Assembly (NCBI RefSeq): GCF_030684315.1
Contig: NC_081396.1
Location: forward strand, 4,216,001 to 4,280,000
Reading direction: 5' to 3'
DNA: 64,000 nt
Source of the DNA: Stegostoma tigrinum
Taxonomy: Eukaryota
This document shows, piece by piece, positions 5,781 to 54,639 of this stretch. The position numbers and the translations under genes were made by a program. Below the pieces are notes generated by a model that was not told the origin of the DNA, did not search any database, and was given only the letters and a program-made list of their open reading frames with translations. Numbering within the stretch: position 1 is the first letter of the stretch; each line of letters begins with the position of its first letter.

Positions 5781-6145
5781 ACCACCCACTGCACCCCAAA
5801 ACCAGTCCAACCTGTCTCTGCCTCCCTAACCGGTTCTTCCTCTCACCCATCCCTTCCTCCCACACCAAGCCGCACCCCCAGCTACCTACTAACCTCATCC
5901 CACCTCCTTGACCTGTCCGTCTTCCCTGGACTGACCTATCCCCTCCCTACCTCCCCACCTATACTCTCTCCACCTATCTTCTTTACTCTCCATCTTCGGT
6001 CCGCCTCCCCCTCTCTCCCTATTTATTCCAGCTCCCTCTCCCCATCCCCCTCTCTGATGAAGGGTCTAGGCCCGAAACATCAGCTTTTGTGCTCCTGAGA
6101 TGCTGCTTGGCCTGCTGTGTTCATCCAGCCTCACATTTTATTATC
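5781..6145 (+). mobile_element. 3' fragment of Penelope-like element with hammerhead core
   Basis: C-rich tract followed by CTGATGA(6054-6060)agggtctaggcccGAAA(6074-6077); closely similar to the 3' end of the PLE at 56670-57036. Confidence 0.85.
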
Positions 6146-31277: not shown

Positions 31278-31325
31278 CCAATGGGCGGAGTCTGTGAACC
31301 TTCCACCTCTGATGGGCACATAAAT
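31278..31325 (+). promoter_or_regulatory. Putative VH promoter core: CCAAT box, GC box, TATA-like
   Basis: CCAAT 31278-31282 abutting GGGCGG 31283-31288; CATAAAT 31319-31325, about 90 bp before the leader ATG. Confidence 0.55.
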
Positions 31326-31413: not shown

Positions 31414-31462
31414 ATGGTGACGACGACAATTTTTCTGAGTTTGTTCCTGACTCTCTTATCCA
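31414..31462 (+). CDS. IGHV: IgM VH leader exon (MVTTTIFLSLFLTLLS)
   Basis: ATG at 31414, hydrophobic signal peptide, phase-1 donor A|GTGAGT and a 125-bp intron. Confidence 0.93.
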
Positions 31463-31587: not shown

Positions 31588-31892
31588 GTGTCCAGTCGGA
31601 GATTACTTTGGTTCAACCACAGGCAGAGACTGGCCATCCTGAAGGCTCCATGAAATTGACCTGTAAAACCAGCGGATTCAGTCTTGCCAGCTACTGGATG
31701 TATTGGATCCGACAGGTCCCTGGACAGGGGCTGGAGTGGATCGTTAGCTACTATAGTTCATCGAGCAACAACTATGCGCCAGCGATTAAAGATCGATTTA
31801 CTGCGTCCAAAGACACTTCAAGCAATATCTTCGCGTTGGAAATGAAGAACCTGAAGATCGAAGACACTGCCATCTATTACTGTGCAAGAGAC
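31588..31892 (+). CDS. IGHV: IgM VH exon (leader part 2 SVQS plus [45 protein letters not shown])
   Basis: AAG| acceptor at 31587; canonical Cys, Trp and YYCAR; open frame; resembles shark IgM VH. Confidence 0.97.
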
Positions 31893-32272: not shown

Positions 32273-32352
32273 AGCTTCTGTGTGGGTTCACATCACTGTG
32301 ATACTACAGTGGGTCACAGTGATGTGCACACTGACATCCTCATTCAAAAACC
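32273..32352 (+). other. IGHD: D1 segment ATACTACAGTGGGT (32301-32314) with 5' 12-RSS and 3' 22-RSS
   Basis: AGCTTCTGT-12-CACTGTG[D]CACAGTG-22-TCAAAAACC. Confidence 0.93.
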
Positions 32353-32683: not shown

Positions 32684-32752
32684 AGTATTTGATATCATGT
32701 ATCTCACAGTGACATACTGGGATACACTGCAATTATGATCAATTCAAAGGCC
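32684..32752 (+). other. IGHD: D2 segment ACATACTGGGATA (32712-32724) with 12-RSS on both sides
   Basis: AGTATTTGA-12-CACAGTG[D]CACTGCA-12-TCAAAGGCC. Confidence 0.88.
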
Positions 32753-33117: not shown

Positions 33118-33165
33118 ACTACCTTGCTTACTGGGGACAAGGAACCATGGTGACCGTGAATTTAG
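33118..33165 (+). CDS. IGHJ: JH segment (YLAYWGQGTMVTVNL)
   Basis: WGQG motif; upstream heptamer CATTGTG 33111-33117; donor G|GTAAGA. Confidence 0.96.
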
Positions 33166-41588: not shown

Positions 41589-41885
41589 TGACTCCATCTT
41601 CCCCGACACTTTATGGTCTAGTCTCCTGTCGTGAACACAGCACTGATGACTCTGTGATTTTTGGATGCTTGGCGATGGACTACTCCCCTGATGTCACTAC
41701 TGTGACCTGGAAGAAAGATGGGACGCAGATCACGAATGGATTTAAGACATACCCATCGGTGAGAAACAAGAAGGGAACTTATACCCTGAGCAGCCAGTTA
41801 GCCCTGACCGGTGCAGATGCGCATTGTGGAAAAGTCTACTGTGAGGTTCGACACAGCGGGTCCGACAAGAGCAAAGAAATACAAT
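41589..41885 (+). CDS. IGHM: IgM Cmu1 exon
   Basis: CAG| acceptor; (V)TPSSPTLYGLVSC..FGCLAMDYSP..TWKKDG..YTLSSQL..YCEVRH; donor T|GTAAGT; 297 nt. Confidence 0.96.
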
Positions 41886-44611: not shown

Positions 44612-44926
44612 GTCCAAACGGTGGTGTCCCTCCGACTGTTCTCCTTACTGTGAGTTCCAGTGAAGAAATCGAGAGCGGGAAAGTTGCAACCTTAGTCTGC
44701 TCAATCTTTCACTTCAATCCAAAGGAAATCTCCGTGGTTTGGTTGAAGAATGGAAGAGTGGTTAATTCTGGTTTCTTCACTTCTCCTGTGTGTGAAGCGA
44801 ATGGAAACTTCTCAACGACCAGTCAGCTGAGAGTGCCTCATGGTGAATGGTTCGACAGAGCAGTCTACACATGCCAGGTCGAACATGAAGGGCACAGTCA
44901 AAGTCACAACATCACCGGACCTCAGG
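44612..44926 (+). CDS. IGHM: IgM Cmu2 exon
   Basis: AAG| acceptor; (C)[48 protein letters not shown]; donor G|GTAAGA; 315 nt. Confidence 0.95.
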
Positions 44927-46823: not shown

Positions 46824-47129
46824 TTTCAGAGTGCCATGATTACACAGTTAAAATACTACCGCCACCAGTTGAACAGGTCTTACTGGAGGCCACGGTGACA
46901 TTAACCTGCGTTGTGTACAACCTTCATTTTGAAGCCAACTTTACCTGGATACACGACAAGAAGACTCTGAAATCAGAACTTGTTGATCAGTCCGGAGAGC
47001 ATTCCGAAGGTGTGATCAGCAATTTAGATATTTCTACTGAAGCCTGGCTGAGTGGGGATACATTTGAATGCGTGGTGAATAATCAGTATCTACCGACTCC
47101 ACTGAGAGACTCCATCCACAAGGAGAAAT
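46824..47129 (+). CDS. IGHM: IgM Cmu3 exon
   Basis: TAG| acceptor; (V)[51 protein letters not shown]; donor T|GTGAGT; 306 nt. Confidence 0.95.
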
Positions 47130-47499
47130 GTGAGTTAAGAAATGAAACCACAAAACATTTATAATTTAGATCCAGTTTCATCGATGGCATGTTTTGATTG
47201 GCATTAACATAGCTCCGTTGATGGCATTGAAGATACACTTGCTGATCAGAAAGCAATAGAAAGAATGAGGGAAAAGGAAAAATTCGATAAACGGATATTT
47301 TGTCGTGATTATATCAAAAATGGGAAGCAAACTGGAGTTTTGTGATATAAATTCCAGCAATGACAAATGTACGAAATTTCCGAGTTCTGGGCTGATGACA
47401 TGCTGATGGCATTTCAACTTGTGTTTTTTTTGTAATGAATAGAATGGATACCATTCTGCTCCTTTAAAAAAAATGGAAGTGAATAAATCCCAAATTAAA

Positions 47500-48757
47500 C
47501 ATGGAATGTTTGTGAGGGGTAGGTCATGCCTTACAAACCTTATCGAGTTTTTTGAGGATGTGACTAGTAAGGTTGATGAGGGTCGAGCTGTGGATGTGGT
47601 GTATATGGACTTCAGTAAGGCATTTGATAAGGTTCCCCGTGGAAGGCTCATTCAGAAGGTCAGGAGGAATGGGATACAGGGGAACTTAGCTGCTTGGATA
47701 CAGAATTGGCTGGCCAACAGAAGACAGCGTGTGGTAGTAGAAGGAAAATATTCTGCCTGGAAGTCAGTGGTGAGTGGGGTTCCACAGGGCTCTGTCCTTG
47801 GGCCTCTACTGTTTGTAATTTTTATTAATGACTTGGACGAGGGAATTGAAGGATGGGTCAGCAAGTTTGCAGACGACACAAAGGTCGGAGGTGTCGTTGA
47901 CAGTGTAGAGGGCTGTTGTAGGCTGCAGCGGGATATTGACAGGATGCAGAGATGGGCTGAGAGGTGGCAGATGGAGTTCAACCTGGATAAATGCGAGGTG
48001 ATGCATTTTGGAAGGTCGAATTTGAAAGCTGAGTACAGGATTAAGGATAGTATTCTTGGCAGCGTGGAGGAACAGAGGGATCTTGGTGTGCAGATACATA
48101 GATCCCTTAAAATGGCCACCCAAGTGGACAGGGTTGTTAAGAAAGCATATGGTGTTTTGGCTTTCATTAACAGGGGGATTGAGTTTAAGAGTCGTGAGAT
48201 CTTGTTGCAGCTCTATAAAACTTTGGTTAGACCGCACTTGGAATACTGCGTCCAGTTCTGGGCGCCCTATTATAGGAAAGATGTGGATGCTTTGGAGAGG
48301 GTTCAGAGGAGGTTTACCAGGATGCTGCCTGGACTGGAGGGCTTATCTTATGAAGAGAGGTTGACTGAGCTCGGTCTCTTTTCATTGGAGAAAAGGAGGA
48401 GGAGAGGGGACCTAATTGAGGTATACAAGATAATGAGAGGCATAGATAGAGTCGATAGCCAGAGACTATTTCCCAGGGCAGAAATGGCTAGCACGAGGGG
48501 TCATAGTTTTAAGCTGGTTGGTGGAAAGTATAGAGGGGATGTCAGAGGCAGGTTCTTTACGCAGAGAGTTGTGAGAGCATGGAATGCGTTGCCAGCAGCA
48601 GTTGTGGAAGCAAGGTCATTGGGGTCATTTAAGAGACTGCTGGACATGCATATGGTCACAGAAATTTGAGGGTGCATCCATGAGGATCAATGGTCGGCAC
48701 AACATTGTGGGCTGAAGGGCCTGTTCTGTGCTGTACTGTTCTATGTTCTATGTTCTA
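47500..48757 (+). mobile_element. Young 5'-truncated CR1 LINE in the Cmu3-Cmu4 intron
   Basis: Uninterrupted 398-aa ORF with VYMDFSKAFDKVP, GVPQGSVLGP and KFADDTK; (GTTCTAT)n tail. Confidence 0.97.
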
Positions 48758-48838: not shown

Positions 48839-49230
48839 TGATAAATCAACTGGAGCCATCGGTGTCGATCCTCCTGCCAACGACAGAAGAAGTCTCTGCA
48901 CAGAGATTTCTTTCACTCACCTGTTTAGTGAGAGGCTTCAGGCCGCGAGAGATCTTTGTCAAGTGGACAACAAATGACAAGCCAATTAATCCCAGTAACT
49001 ACAAGAACACCGAGGTGACGGCAGAGAGCAACAACACTTCATTCTTCTTGTACAGCCTATTAACAATTGCAGCGGAGGAGTGGGCCAGCGGTGCTTCTTA
49101 CTCCTGTGTGGTGGGACATGAAGCGATTCCATTGAAGATCATCAACAGAACGGTTGATAAATCCAGTGGTAAACCGAGTTTTGTGAATATTTCGCTTGCA
49201 CTGATGGACACCATCAATTCATGCCAATGA
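48839..49230 (+). CDS. IGHM: IgM Cmu4 exon plus secretory tailpiece
   Basis: TAG| acceptor; [40 protein letters not shown]|[20 protein letters not shown] with penultimate Cys and NIS glycan site; internal donor G|GTAAAC after 49168. Confidence 0.97.
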
Positions 49231-49257
49231 AAATTTCAAAGTTACACTTATGAATTA

Positions 49258-49263
49258 AATAAA
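49258..49263 (+). terminator. Polyadenylation signal, secretory mu transcript
   Basis: AATAAA 27 nt after the stop, followed by GT/T-rich sequence. Confidence 0.85.
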
Positions 49264-50379
49264 AGTAATGAAGTGTTTTCTTTCTTCTAATTGTCATTTA
49301 ACTAGATAATCGTTTAATTTATGGTATTCCCACTTTTCATAATATTCCGCCCTTCCAGTAAAAGTCGACAGTCAGCAAGACGAGGACTCGTGTCTGGTGC
49401 AGTTAATGCTCATTACTCAGACCAGTCCTTGTTCAGTGACAGACTAAAGCTCAATCATTGCAGGACTCGGCAAAGCACCTTCCCCATTTTAAATGTTACT
49501 GCGACAAGAAATGACAATGTCTATTCCATCAAAAATGGGCATCACGGATTTTGATCTTGGTTTCCCTGATTCAACAATCGCCCATGTCTTGAAAATTCAT
49601 GCCAGCTTTTAAATTCCCGATGGCACCCGCGTGGAGTATACCCTTTCGTGACATTTCAAACAATTTTTGATTGTGACACACCAAGAAGGAAGTATTGTTT
49701 TTGTTACCAATTATATTGAGTTCAGATCAACTTGAATTTCTCCTTTTATCGGTGCTATGCCAGGGATCTCATACCAGTGCATCAGTTAACAGAATGCATT
49801 CTCAAGTCCATACCTAACAGAAGAGAAAGAAATGTTGTTATTTCGAACAGAGGTAGAGGGGGGTAGAATGATGAATGGATGATATGCGGTCTCCTCTTGC
49901 CTAGAGTTCCCGTTATATGCCCTCTGTAATGTGATTTGTAGCTGACAGGAATAGTCACCTCATTGCTTACTGGCCATTGACTTAAATTTTCCATGCAATA
50001 TAATTCATTTGAAGCGAATTTTGTACACCTGATCCCGTTAATCATCTGTTAACATTGTTTCTGCGTTATCCAAACCAAACTGGCATTATTTCAATTTATT
50101 TTCAACAGTTCTGACTCAAATTCCTGGAACCCGAGGGATCAGTTCTGGGATACAAATACCGGACAACATTTTCTTTCACTTGCTGTGGACATATTTTACA
50201 TACAATTTTCTCAGAAATGTAATTCTCCGTCTGTAGAATGGTCGGAATTTGATCTGAGGAATTTCATTTCAGAGACAGGAATTCGGTCTTTGCAACAAGA
50301 GTTATTCACGTAGCGCTTATCTGTTCAAAAAAGTGACAAATGTTCCCTTCACCATCAGGGGCAGAACTAATCATTGGCA

Positions 50380-51600
50380 AATGATTACAATTACAAAACA
50401 TTGAAAAAACAACACACAGTCCGGTAGAAGAGCAGAAACAAACACAAATCCTCACAAACGCTCTCACGACACAGATATACAAGCTCTCACCAAAAGGGGC
50501 ATAATTATGTACAAACATAACTGCGCATACACATAAGTTGTCACACCTCCATACATATAGAAAGGCATATTTCAATTTGATGTATAAGCTGTCACATAAA
50601 CTCTGACAAAAAGACAAGTGCATTGAAAGAAACACACCCAAATAAACATGGATCACCATGCAAAATCATGAAAAACATAGCCACACGTTCGCACACAAAT
50701 GCTCTTTAATGCATATCCATTTACAACCATGATACTTACAGATATGCATGTGTAAACACACACATACAATATCCAACATATATCCTCCCATGTACGCACT
50801 CACACACACACACGTGCAGAGATAAACTTTAATTCCATTATTATCCCACTAGCAGAAATATAGACATCTGAGCTAAGAGGCAGCTTAGTTATTTATTTTA
50901 CAGAACACTTTAATGAACACATCAGAACGACCACGCATGAACACAATTTCTGACTCTCACAGGCAAACACAGAAGTTTTGATCAATGCACAGTGGAGTAT
51001 TTGCAATAAAGGGGAATAGCACAATATCAAGAAATATTCACACCAATAGCACAAAAAATCATATCAGGAGGTGGGTTAGAATGCATTGAAATGCAAATAA
51101 TAACTTCAAATAAATATAAACATGAATCAATACATGAAGTTACATACGAACATAACATGTTTATGGAACACAAACATGAAAATATTTTCAGTCTGGCAGA
51201 CTCCACAATCGATACTTAATCACACATTTTCAATAGCACTATACAAAAAAAATCACAATGTCATTAAAAAATGTTTTAGCTACGAACGAATGAAGCAGCA
51301 TATTAACATAGCGTTGCTTACACGTTGTGAAATGAACACAATTTACCGACAAAAGCACAAAGATGTCAATGAACATACCGGCACCCATGCAACATGAATA
51401 TGCTTGGCCATGCATAATCTCCAAAGAGTATACATGTGAAGGAAGAGACACTCATAACCACATACCCAAACAATAAAGGGAAAAAATACACACCAAGCTG
51501 CAGACAAAAAAATAACTAAGGGAGAGTTCACAAAATAAAAAAAAAACTTAGCATAGACAGATAATGCAAACAAATATATGAAACAATGATCGTACTCGAG
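50380..51600. repeat. Low-complexity CA/A-rich degenerate microsatellite region in the Cmu4-TM intron
   Basis: Strongly A/C-biased acacat/acacac tracts. Confidence 0.6.
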
Positions 51601-52053
51601 ATCCAAAATATATTCATGCTTTATCGAGCGATTAATCACACGTAAAAATTAAAGATCAGCAGTCACATTTGAACTCATATTCACTGATGACCACAATTTT
51701 CAACTGAAAAGCTGCCACTGCCGATATTGGAAATACAATGCTATAATTAAAATAATCATTCCTAATCAGTGAAATGACAACAGAGATTATATTCTCCATG
51801 AATATTTTAAATAATGAAATGCGTCAGAATGTTCAGACATGGCTACCAATGGAAGAACATGTCCAAATGGGTTAAACAAGTCATTGCTGGCAGGAAATAA
51901 CACAACAATCGATGGAGATCAAAAGTAAAATTTAAGAACAACCTGAGAGCTTGAAGAAGGTGTAACGGTTCCCAATGACAATATTTGGAGAAAGATATAT
52001 CAGACAGGATCAATGTACAAGCTCAACTCGTTGTCTCGCCTTTATATTCATCG

Positions 52054-52181
52054 ACTCGAGAGATCATAATTGGATTGCAGACTCTGAGGATGATAATGGC
52101 CACGTGTGGACAACTGCTTCTACATTCATTACCTTGTTCTTCCTGAGCATTTTCTACAGTGCTGCCGTTACACTGATCAAG
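52054..52181 (+). CDS. IGHM: IgM TM1 exon ((D)SRDHNWIADSEDDNGHVWTTASTFITLFFLSIFYSAAVTLIK); expected acceptor non-canonical
   Basis: Conserved WTTASTF..LF.LS..YS..VTL antigen-receptor TM motif; donor AAG|GTAAGA; the start is inferred and is preceded by CG. Confidence 0.88.
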
Positions 52182-52320
52182 GTAAGACAAATGAAATCAT
52201 TCGCACCTCAAACAGCCCATTGTGCTTTGTGAAATCTGGTTGTGTGTCAATGAATTAAAATTAAAACCTGAATGCCCTGAGCATAAATATTTACATCTTC
52301 ACCTTATCACTCTTTTTCAG

Positions 52321-52329
52321 GTCAAGTGA
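52321..52329 (+). CDS. IGHM: IgM TM2 exon (VK*)
   Basis: TCTTTTTCAG|GTCAAGTGA completes the KVK cytoplasmic tail. Confidence 0.92.
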   Translation, partial: VK

Positions 52330-52834
52330 ATGAATTTTGCACTCCGTGGAATTTCCTCATCTGTTCATCGAGGCCACTGAACTCCAAATGTATAATCAGT
52401 CATGTTGTTGAATGTAGCAGTGAGAAAAATTCAGTTTACGAGTCTGTAAATGAGAAAATCTTTGTTGGGTTTTCTATTCACCTTGCTTGGTAACATCAAG
52501 ATAATTAGTTTTTCAATAATTTGTAGATTCTTAATAGGTTAAGTCAATTTGTTTTGTTGTTGTTGTTCTTATTCCTTATTCAGAATTGTTGTTCGTCTTC
52601 TTTGCTGAGTCTGTATTTTCTTTTTCTGATGACTGTTACCGATGAGTGTGAAATTCAGAGCTCAGATGGTATGTGTCATCGACTGAATGTGGCATCAAAT
52701 CATAATGTTCACTTCTGGTAATTTTAACATAAATATTTTGATGAAATTGCTGTCTGAATCAGGAAATATACAGAGACTGACTATGTACAAACCTTGAGTT
52801 TGCATTATTCTTTCTTCAAAGGTCATCAGTAATG

Positions 52835-53273
52835 ACAGTAGAACAATGGTCATGATTTTTATAATGACTGGGCAAATGGGTGTGACCTGTGTGCATAACA
52901 GGATACAACAATGGACTGTTTGCGCTGAAATCCATCTGCCTCTGGATTATGGCATGAGACAGATCGAGTGAAAAATGGGTTTATATTCATGGGCTGTAAG
53001 ATGGAGAAGCTGAAGATGGAGAATTTTCCTAAATTTTACCGTCCCACTCCGATTCCAGTCAAATGCTTCAGAGTTATATCTGATTGTGTTTCCTGTCGTC
53101 ATTAGGTTCAAGTTTCTCCATCTTGCAGCCCATTTTTCACTCGATCTGTCTAATGACACAATCCAGATACAGAATGATGACAGCGCAAGCAGGCCATTGT
53201 TGTATCCTGTTATGCACACAGGTCACAACCGTTTGTTCAGCCGTTGTAAAAATCACAGCAGTTGTTCTGTTGT
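52835..53273. repeat. Long inverted repeat (arms about 170 bp, loop about 100 bp), MITE-like
   Basis: TGTGACCTGTGTGCATAACAGGATACAACAATGG (52881-52914) is the exact reverse complement of 53194-53227; the alignment extends both ways. Confidence 0.9.
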
Positions 53274-54639
53274 GAACCTGGTGAAGGCAGGCAATGGAGT
53301 CAGGAAGATTACTTTGTTCTGACTAAAAGCACAAAACCTCCAGGATCGTAAGACCTTCAGTTACTCACCGATAAATGTCCACGTAACATGCCCAATTAAA
53401 GGTTCATCAGCCAAGAATGTCACATTCGGTCGCGAATACAGACACATTGAGACCTGTGAGACCCATGACAGAATTCGGCACTAAAAAAAAGCCGTTCTCG
53501 GCATCTGAAACCTGTCCGTTCTGGACACACTGAAGCTTCTTCTGGTAGTTTGATTTTATTTATTCTGGGGGCTACTCATGTAATATGAATCCGTTACGAC
53601 AACATCTGTTTCAAAACACCAAACAATTAAAATGATCCTTGGTCAAATCTGATAAATTGGTCAGCCTGGAGCACCAAAAAAACTATGTACATATGTCAAG
53701 TATTTTCTTTATTTTCTTAATTTGCCATTTAATACTTAAACGTGAATATTATACGTCAACAAGAGACTTATGATCACCTTAAATGCATGCAACCATTACA
53801 CATGTGAAAATTCACAAAATTAAAATGAATTGCACGCTAAATTAAATTGGGCACACACGGAGAATCTTCCAAACTATTGGAGCAAGAGTCGCATTCTTTC
53901 ACAACAGCTGGAATTCTTAAATGTGCAAAATATCTGAAAGAAACACATAAGTAGATTTACAGTGTGGAAATCTAAACGTCAACAGAAATAGATAGTGTAC
54001 AAAGCATTACGTTCACACTGACGACAGAAGCAGTGCTGTTAAATGTGCGAGATGCTCGGACAAATTTACGTGCCTACTCTGTGACAGACACAGAAATTAA
54101 TCTCGATCCATCACAACATTTCTTTCAAAGCATCTCGCCAGGCTCGTATTTTTTGGAATGTCCCGAATAATCCCGAGGCCACGGCACAGTTTACAGGAAA
54201 TTCAATTGATTGAACCACTCGCTACTTAAAAATGAGCTTCACTTTATCTAATTTTGAGTTGTTTCATTTGTCAATTATATTTGACCAGCGTCTGAAAGTT
54301 TTCCAATCCTTCCTCAGTGGAAGTAATTTCTCACTATCCAATTCTACGATAACCATCAGGATTTTCAGAAAATCAGCCATATTGAAAATTGCTGTTCAAA
54401 AGAGGAGAACAGTCCTGAATTTGAAATATCGGTGAGGTGCATCATCCGAGGAAACCTGCTGTGATGTTGACATGCCGCTGTCTCCAGACTTCGTATTCAT
54501 CAAAAAAAGTGTCCTCTGAAACTGGACGCAGTTTTCCAGGTGAGCTGAGCGACTATTTTATTTATGTTTCACGTAATTCCTTTCATTTTTATCTCCAGCA
54601 GTGTTAATGAAGAAATGCATTTACTGCACTTCCCCCCAC

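Follow-up and report, generated by a model that had tools for sequence, protein, structure and literature searches.

In the nurse shark, 9-12 functional Ig-μ clusters are described together with three pseudogenes and G2C (PMC5192425; PMC2435157). The same accounts give shark IgM miniclusters a VH-D1-D2-JH-Cμ1-4-sec-TM1-TM2 layout and a spacing of about 100 kb, with living, dead and germline-joined copies mixed. Shark B cells are reported to hold mostly one functional VDJ; a stop signal once a viable μ chain has been made was put forward by Malecek et al. as a proposal (PMC2435157). In mice, feedback is attributed to membrane μ and not to secreted μ (PMC2189090; PMC2189689; PMC2195600), and in muMT mice and secreted-only μ transgenes the membrane form is disabled while the secreted form is encoded. 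Two fish systems bear on loss of a membrane form: channel catfish IGHD3, a duplicated Ig locus for the secreted form only that lies beside an Ig-μ pseudogene, and nurse shark IgM1gj, a subclass described as mainly secreted protein (both PMC5192425). Inter-cluster switching is reported in the nurse shark, its direction being called unclear in a review (PMC4279169).

The window, the whole 64,000-nt stretch of Stegostoma tigrinum DNA analysed here, contains a shark IgM minicluster (cluster A), one of about 17 neighbouring copies, that shares the layout, spacing and mixed company of the miniclusters described above. Its single overt lesion is restricted to the membrane splice. As in muMT mice and the secreted-only transgenes, the membrane form would be disabled and the secreted form encoded, with feedback and allelic exclusion predicted to be absent; in contrast to muMT, the change is a natural point change, possibly leaky via cryptic AGs, in one of many redundant clusters rather than in one of two alleles, so that the likeness is a functional analogy and not membership. 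Catfish IGHD3 is described as expressed and as making a V-less IgD, whereas cluster A is known here from sequence alone; IgM1gj is described as germline-joined and without Cμ2, whereas cluster A is unjoined and has four Cμ exons. A literature search, mainly of openly accessible journals, turned up no report of a TM acceptor lesion in a shark IgM cluster, and one may exist.

Cluster A is complete in order (L, VH, D1, D2, JH, Cμ1-4, secretory tail, TM1 and TM2; Table 1), and mapping of all exons found no stop or frameshift in its V or C exons. For the secreted form the frames are open and every GT/AG site is present, the secretory AATAAA (49258-63) is intact, and the six recombination signal sequences (RSS) have CAC heptamers with 12 or 22-23 spacers. 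Cμ4 ends in phase 1, and G+AC opens TM1 with DSRDHNWI...; the original prediction had read this donor and this start, with which the frame at 49168/52054 agrees; it had also called all the other exons intact, which is correct as far as reading frames and GT/AG dinucleotides go. The cluster would pass as intact in a gene model, yet it lacks the TM1 AG acceptor required of a functional minicluster and has lost an invariant splice dinucleotide, one of the marks of an IgM pseudogene cluster. Protein searches returned no annotated product of cluster A, the best matches coming from other sharks (those named being Ginglymostoma cirratum and Chiloscyllium punctatum, with 71-74% identity over Cμ2), and no spare TM exon was found between clusters A and B by own-genome search. 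The Cμ3-Cμ4 intron contains an open frame of about 410 aa (47443-48670) that resembles a LINE reverse transcriptase.

Table 1. Features of cluster A, numbered from the first letter of the window
Feature	Position	Strand	Basis
TATA-like box, CATAAA (putative)	31319..31324	+	comparison with other V-bearing copies
Leader exon, intact	31414..31462	+	exon mapping
VH exon, open; followed by 23-RSS CACAGAG/ACAAGAACA	31588..31892	+	exon mapping, RSS scoring
D1 with 12- and 22-RSS	32301..32314	+	exon mapping, RSS scoring
D2; 3' 12-RSS at 32725-52	32712..32724	+	exon mapping, RSS scoring
JH (WGQG), donor intact	33118..33165	+	exon mapping
Cμ1, intact	41589..41885	+	exon mapping
Cμ2, intact	44612..44926	+	exon mapping
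Cμ3, intact	46830..47129	+	exon mapping
Cμ4, intact; internal phase-1 donor G/GTAAACCG	48839..49168	+	exon mapping
Secretory tailpiece (..INSCQ, then stop), intact	49169..49230	+	exon mapping
Upstream in-frame GAG, would add 21 aa	51989..51990	+	frame count; absent from the original prediction
Mutated TM1 acceptor, CG for AG	52052..52053	+	window letters, paralog alignment, read contigs
TM1 exon, open from canonical start, donor intact	52054..52181	+	exon mapping
Tandem GAG-AG, of which only the second AG is in frame (-3 aa)	52059..52062	+	frame count
In-frame CAG (-9 aa), AAG to CAG by private A>C in cis with CG	52078..52080	+	paralogs, contigs
TM2 (VK, then stop), acceptor intact	52321..52329	+	exon mapping
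Candidate proximal poly(A) signal of the membrane form; A-F have AATATA, H-Q AATAAA	52765..52770	+	paralog comparison
Distal AATAAA site of B-F, H and P; lost in cluster A	53477..53493	+	paralog comparison

At the TM1 boundary (52040-52067) the window reads CTTTATATTCATCG/ACTCGAGAGATCAT, so that, as originally predicted, the dinucleotide is CG where AG is expected. A search of the shark's own genome with the TM1 region gave 26 matches including the window; AG stands at the homologous acceptor in all 24 alignable paralogous TM1 exons among the 25 others (L025, without alignment at that position, was left out of the count), making CG private to cluster A. C at 52052 is present in the short-read contigs of all four DNA-type runs, which represent one sample. 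In each run a 149-nt contig (51986-52134) has a single mismatch to the window, at 52006, and its depth (6.5, 5.8, 11.5 and 15.5) equals the depth that keeps C at both 52052 and 52078; the reads therefore contain the C at 52052, and they have it in cis with C52078. The listed contigs that show A instead have 9-12 other differing letters and, where the pieces are listed, fit paralogs D and E. Error in the assembly at 52052 is thus a highly improbable explanation: the private base at neighbouring 52006 is absent from the same contigs, so assembly and contigs do differ locally, but the contigs of all four runs link C52052 to the other private letters of cluster A. The reads establish the base and not its fixation in the species, since the sample may be the assembled individual.

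All read depth at 52006 is T, and this is the only true difference between reads and assembly; apparent differences at 51800 and 52176, considered as a second haplotype, lie more than 31 nt from other private letters and are explained by contig chimerism. Private changes at 52006-07 and 52020-21 create two out-of-frame AGs upstream of the acceptor, the first of these changes being missing from the read contigs.

Loss of the dinucleotide leaves several nearby AGs. Frame counting from 52054 places those at 52059-60, 52061-62 and 52079-80 at +7 (out of frame), +9 and +27 (both in frame), in agreement with the frames and the shortening of 3 or 9 aa given earlier; that the CAG is private to cluster A had been overlooked. 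In human U2 introns, non-AG 3' sites are reported to be TG only and never the sole site (PMC2374985); 62% of human canonical acceptor variants lead to splicing at an exonic site further downstream (PMC12081236), with cryptic acceptors peaking at +8 nt (PMC1636351). The acceptor checklist in the last of these sets a minimum of nine pyrimidines at -24..-5; both GAGs pass (14 each at 52060 and 52062), the upstream GAG has 11, and the CAG misses narrowly with 8, the range at 42 authentic acceptor positions in six clusters being 13-18. The Cμ4 internal donor is not of the U12 type, whose donor motif is RTATCCTT. GAG is the weakest type of acceptor, and membrane splicing competes with secretory polyadenylation. 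Use of the GAG at 52060 is predicted to shift the frame and give a 28-aa tail with a stop at 52146, 35 nt before the last junction, and TM1 skipping to give a 57-aa non-membrane tail; with hydropathies of 1.45 and 0.92, against 2.05 for the real anchor, neither tail fits an anchor. By human splice rules, much less membrane μ would be expected from cluster A. In clusters J-Q an in-frame TAG (GATAG) that could serve as an alternative acceptor stands 9 nt into TM1; clusters A-H are without it and have GAGAG at the same place.

RNA-type data came from three spliced contig sets of one study (X8-X10). They list two Cμ4-TM1 joints. The joint in X10 is of cluster I type and that in X8 of cluster M type, and each resolves to the canonical acceptor, so for these two types normal paralog splicing at the positions of 52062 or 52080 is ruled out. 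The X10 joint, printed as 49168 to 52061, had suggested that the out-of-frame AG was used; it comes from a canonically spliced paralog, since the seven intervening letters are the first seven bases of cluster I TM1. No TM1 or membrane 3'UTR contig of cluster A type, or of any A-F type, is listed in X8-X10, no contig in these sets is assignable to cluster A, its letters at 48906 and 48972 have little or no depth there, and no RNA data set is listed for 51000-53000 of the window. Because variants are lost in contigs and genes cannot be ranked by depth, the missing cluster A RNA speaks neither for nor against its expression. At private site 48897, X10 has 16% non-C depth, which was rejected as a cluster A signal; it disagrees with A at 48906 (2%), and the position is a CpG in paralogs.

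Cluster A was compared, all exons mapped, with 16 other V-bearing clusters (B-Q), one C-TM unit (R) and one orphan V on the same contig. Five of the 16 are dead (B, C, D, H and Q) and 11 overtly intact. Clusters A-F form a six-member subfamily with support of 100/100 in C and TM trees, in which E is the sister of cluster A and the terminal branch of cluster A in the TM region is 0.033. Three of its five sisters are dead, B and C having a truncated Cμ2 and stops in Cμ3 and Cμ4, and D (L035, G000:C55, about 4.577 Mb) a GG at the Cμ1 donor, a GG at the Cμ4 acceptor and a stop in Cμ4; E and F are intact. The Cμ4 GG of cluster D is an independent acceptor loss in a sister.

The array shows further rearrangement. 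Across 31014-52780 the place of cluster A relative to B-F shifts in mosaic fashion: it is basal in V-J, groups with B/C at Cμ1 and goes with E at Cμ3, Cμ4 and TM, which suggests conversion or unequal crossover. Germline joining is found in G (L042; V-D), H (L049; V-D and D-J), P (L073; D1-D2) and Q (L076; apparently V-D-J). Five extra Cμ4-TM modules (L017-L021; G000:C55, 3.43-3.90 Mb) lie about 15 kb downstream of J, K, L, M and N, and in every one of them a deletion of 11 nt shifts the TM1 frame. The orphan VH (L045; G000:C55:4193963-4194510), 53 kb upstream of the cluster A VH, is a pseudogene with stops and the heptamer AACAGAG, and no D, J or C was found within 20 kb of it.

Cluster A has other private changes, in regulatory as well as coding positions. 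The TATA-like box is TATAAA in 14 of the 17 other V-bearing copies; cluster A has T>C, and the box is otherwise altered only in dead H and Q and the orphan V. The total of RSS mismatches (23) is the highest of 13 clusters, the 12 others having 19-21; the D2 3' 12-RSS nonamer has three mismatches against one in B-F, and the JH nonamer five, the most of the 13 (consensus from PMC212687). These changes to the TATA-like box and to the D2-3' and JH nonamers favour general decay. Against it speak the promoter as a whole, where cluster A, with 19 of 214 columns changed, stays within the 18-20 of B-F, and both weakened nonamers, which retain the purine-A/T-purine core at positions 4-6 described for RSS nonamers (PMC12711392). 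A first count of 7/166, taken as promoter-wide relaxed constraint, disappeared on an unbiased panel. RSS-like matches at 6119, 26143 and 30234 were rejected as TCR V signals; they are copies of a repeat family that carries a near-perfect 22-spacer RSS look-alike, and they have no V exon.

In TM1 two of 27 otherwise invariant residues are changed (none of 25 in E and F); the private residues are E>A at 52078, by the A>C change, and V>I at 52176, the Glu being kept in all 17 other clusters. Among A-F the distal AATAAA is gone only from cluster A. The AATATA after TM2 in the plus-strand subfamily A-F, seen by comparing the window site with the homologous sites of L027-L044 (clusters B-G), may lower the efficiency with which these clusters make membrane mRNA.

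Private C-region changes (nonsynonymous/synonymous) number 5/5 in cluster A, 6/13 in E, 6/4 in F and 9/6 in dead D (few changes; Fisher p=0.70 for cluster A against D and 0.72 against E+F). The pN/pS of the cluster A C region is 0.29 (p=0.053 against neutral), purifying on average; the ratio cannot separate living from dead clusters, since it is 0.44 in both dead D and intact F. TM1 has two nonsynonymous and one synonymous private changes, again few, with introns at about 3%. No other stop, frameshift or splice lesion occurs in 1706 coding nt. Under a rough lesion clock with assumed rates, the probability of no further lesion is 0.34 when neutral divergence is 0.5%, falling to 0.12 at 1% and 0.002 at 3%, so that a wholly dead cluster is expected to show another by 1-2%; any death of cluster A would thus be recent, and the acceptor loss would take up at most about one-third of its terminal branch.

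On balance we favour, at slightly better than an even chance, the view that cluster A is a recently disabled IgM cluster, membrane-null or nearly so, that behaves like a mouse muMT allele. Splicing from Cμ4 to TM1 at 52054 would be lost; most transcripts would be polyadenylated at the secretory site, which is intact, and the remainder would use the GAG at 52060, the GAG at 52062 or TM1 skipping. A B-cell precursor that had rearranged only cluster A would have too little receptor for selection; expression of the cluster would then go no further than that of a secreted passenger or a switch recipient now and then, as with a muMT allele. Since 11 overtly intact clusters accompany it, the loss was likely near neutral, and with half of the subfamily dead as well, recent decay is the most economical reading. 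The intact coding sequence speaks against a disabled cluster. Human downstream-site use, the +8 nt peak and the passing pyrimidine count of the GAG at 52062 speak against a membrane-null one, and it is on these that a living hypomorph would depend, in which that GAG or the CAG gives a working receptor with a shorter spacer. We regard this, the main alternative, as possible and somewhat doubtful. Downstream exonic sites are the usual outcome after acceptor loss in the human surveys cited above, but here the first AG met is out of frame and of the same GAG type as the second. The private A>C may be compensatory: it shares its 149-nt contig with the CG, it alters a conserved Glu, and branch-like yUnAy motifs stand 31 and 37 nt upstream of the CAG. 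That site is nevertheless below the pyrimidine minimum, and an in-frame YAG arises by random change in 3-4% of cases, or 12-15% given four private changes near the site, so the private CAG is not beyond chance. In favour of rescue, both the donor of TM1 and the acceptor of TM2 survive, as does the transmembrane stretch, and the coding sequence has since gained no lesion; a weak acceptor would still have to compete with an intact secretory poly(A) site, with the distal AATAAA lost.

The original prediction went further and proposed that the C region could serve mainly as a secretory isotype. Its expectation of little or altered membrane IgM stands, as the probable consequence of a lost AG where paralogs splice canonically; the secretory isotype finds no support beside dead sisters and a changed TATA-like box and RSS nonamers, and plain decay and functional rescue by nearby in-frame AGs had both been left out. 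We consider a selected secretory-only isotype unlikely. In it the membrane branch would have been shed and secreted Cμ kept for inter-cluster switching or plasma-cell co-expression. Such a natural secretory-only IgM gene, improbable as we judge it, would have shed the acceptor, a spacer residue and the distal poly(A) signal while keeping its secreted C region, which inter-cluster switching, or else an escape from heavy-chain exclusion, would fill; cluster A would perhaps then be the extreme of the whole subfamily A-F, with its membrane poly(A) signal weakened to AATATA. The sole overt lesion, both invariant-residue changes and the lost AATAAA all fall in the membrane-specific part, about one-tenth of the lesion target (21/236 units), while the secretory tail and its AATAAA are intact; switching in the nurse shark (PMC4279169) and a separate catfish gene for secreted IgD (PMC5192425), both as given in reviews, supply precedents. 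Against this, no expression or switching was seen for cluster A, its selection signal is no stronger than that of dead D, and private changes also reach the TATA-like box and RSS nonamers, elements needed for the secreted form. With Cμ4 96-97% identical to its sisters and the tailpiece unchanged, nothing in the sequence points to an effector part of its own; by switching to cluster A a cell would lose its receptor, and three of five sister clusters are pseudogenes. Persistence as a VH donor while the C and TM exons decay, for example through IgH-V to TCR-δ trans-rearrangement, seems very unlikely: VH and its RSS are intact, and elasmobranch IgH clusters are described near TCR α/δ with trans-rearrangements common (PMC12227049), but the VH of cluster A has no distinguishing feature. 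The CG acceptor therefore probably marks early pseudogenisation of cluster A and not a specialised secreted class.

The kind of event is the ordinary birth and death of Ig clusters, and on the likeliest reading the main value of the finding is for annotation, as one more birth-and-death step in the shark IgM array. Should cluster A prove to be retained as a secretory-only target, inter-cluster switching in sharks would gain a concrete function. If it still rearranges, it would be a natural membrane-null control for membrane-μ feedback in shark heavy-chain exclusion, and a second productive VDJ would be expected at a much higher frequency in B cells with a productive cluster A VDJ than in those using E or F.
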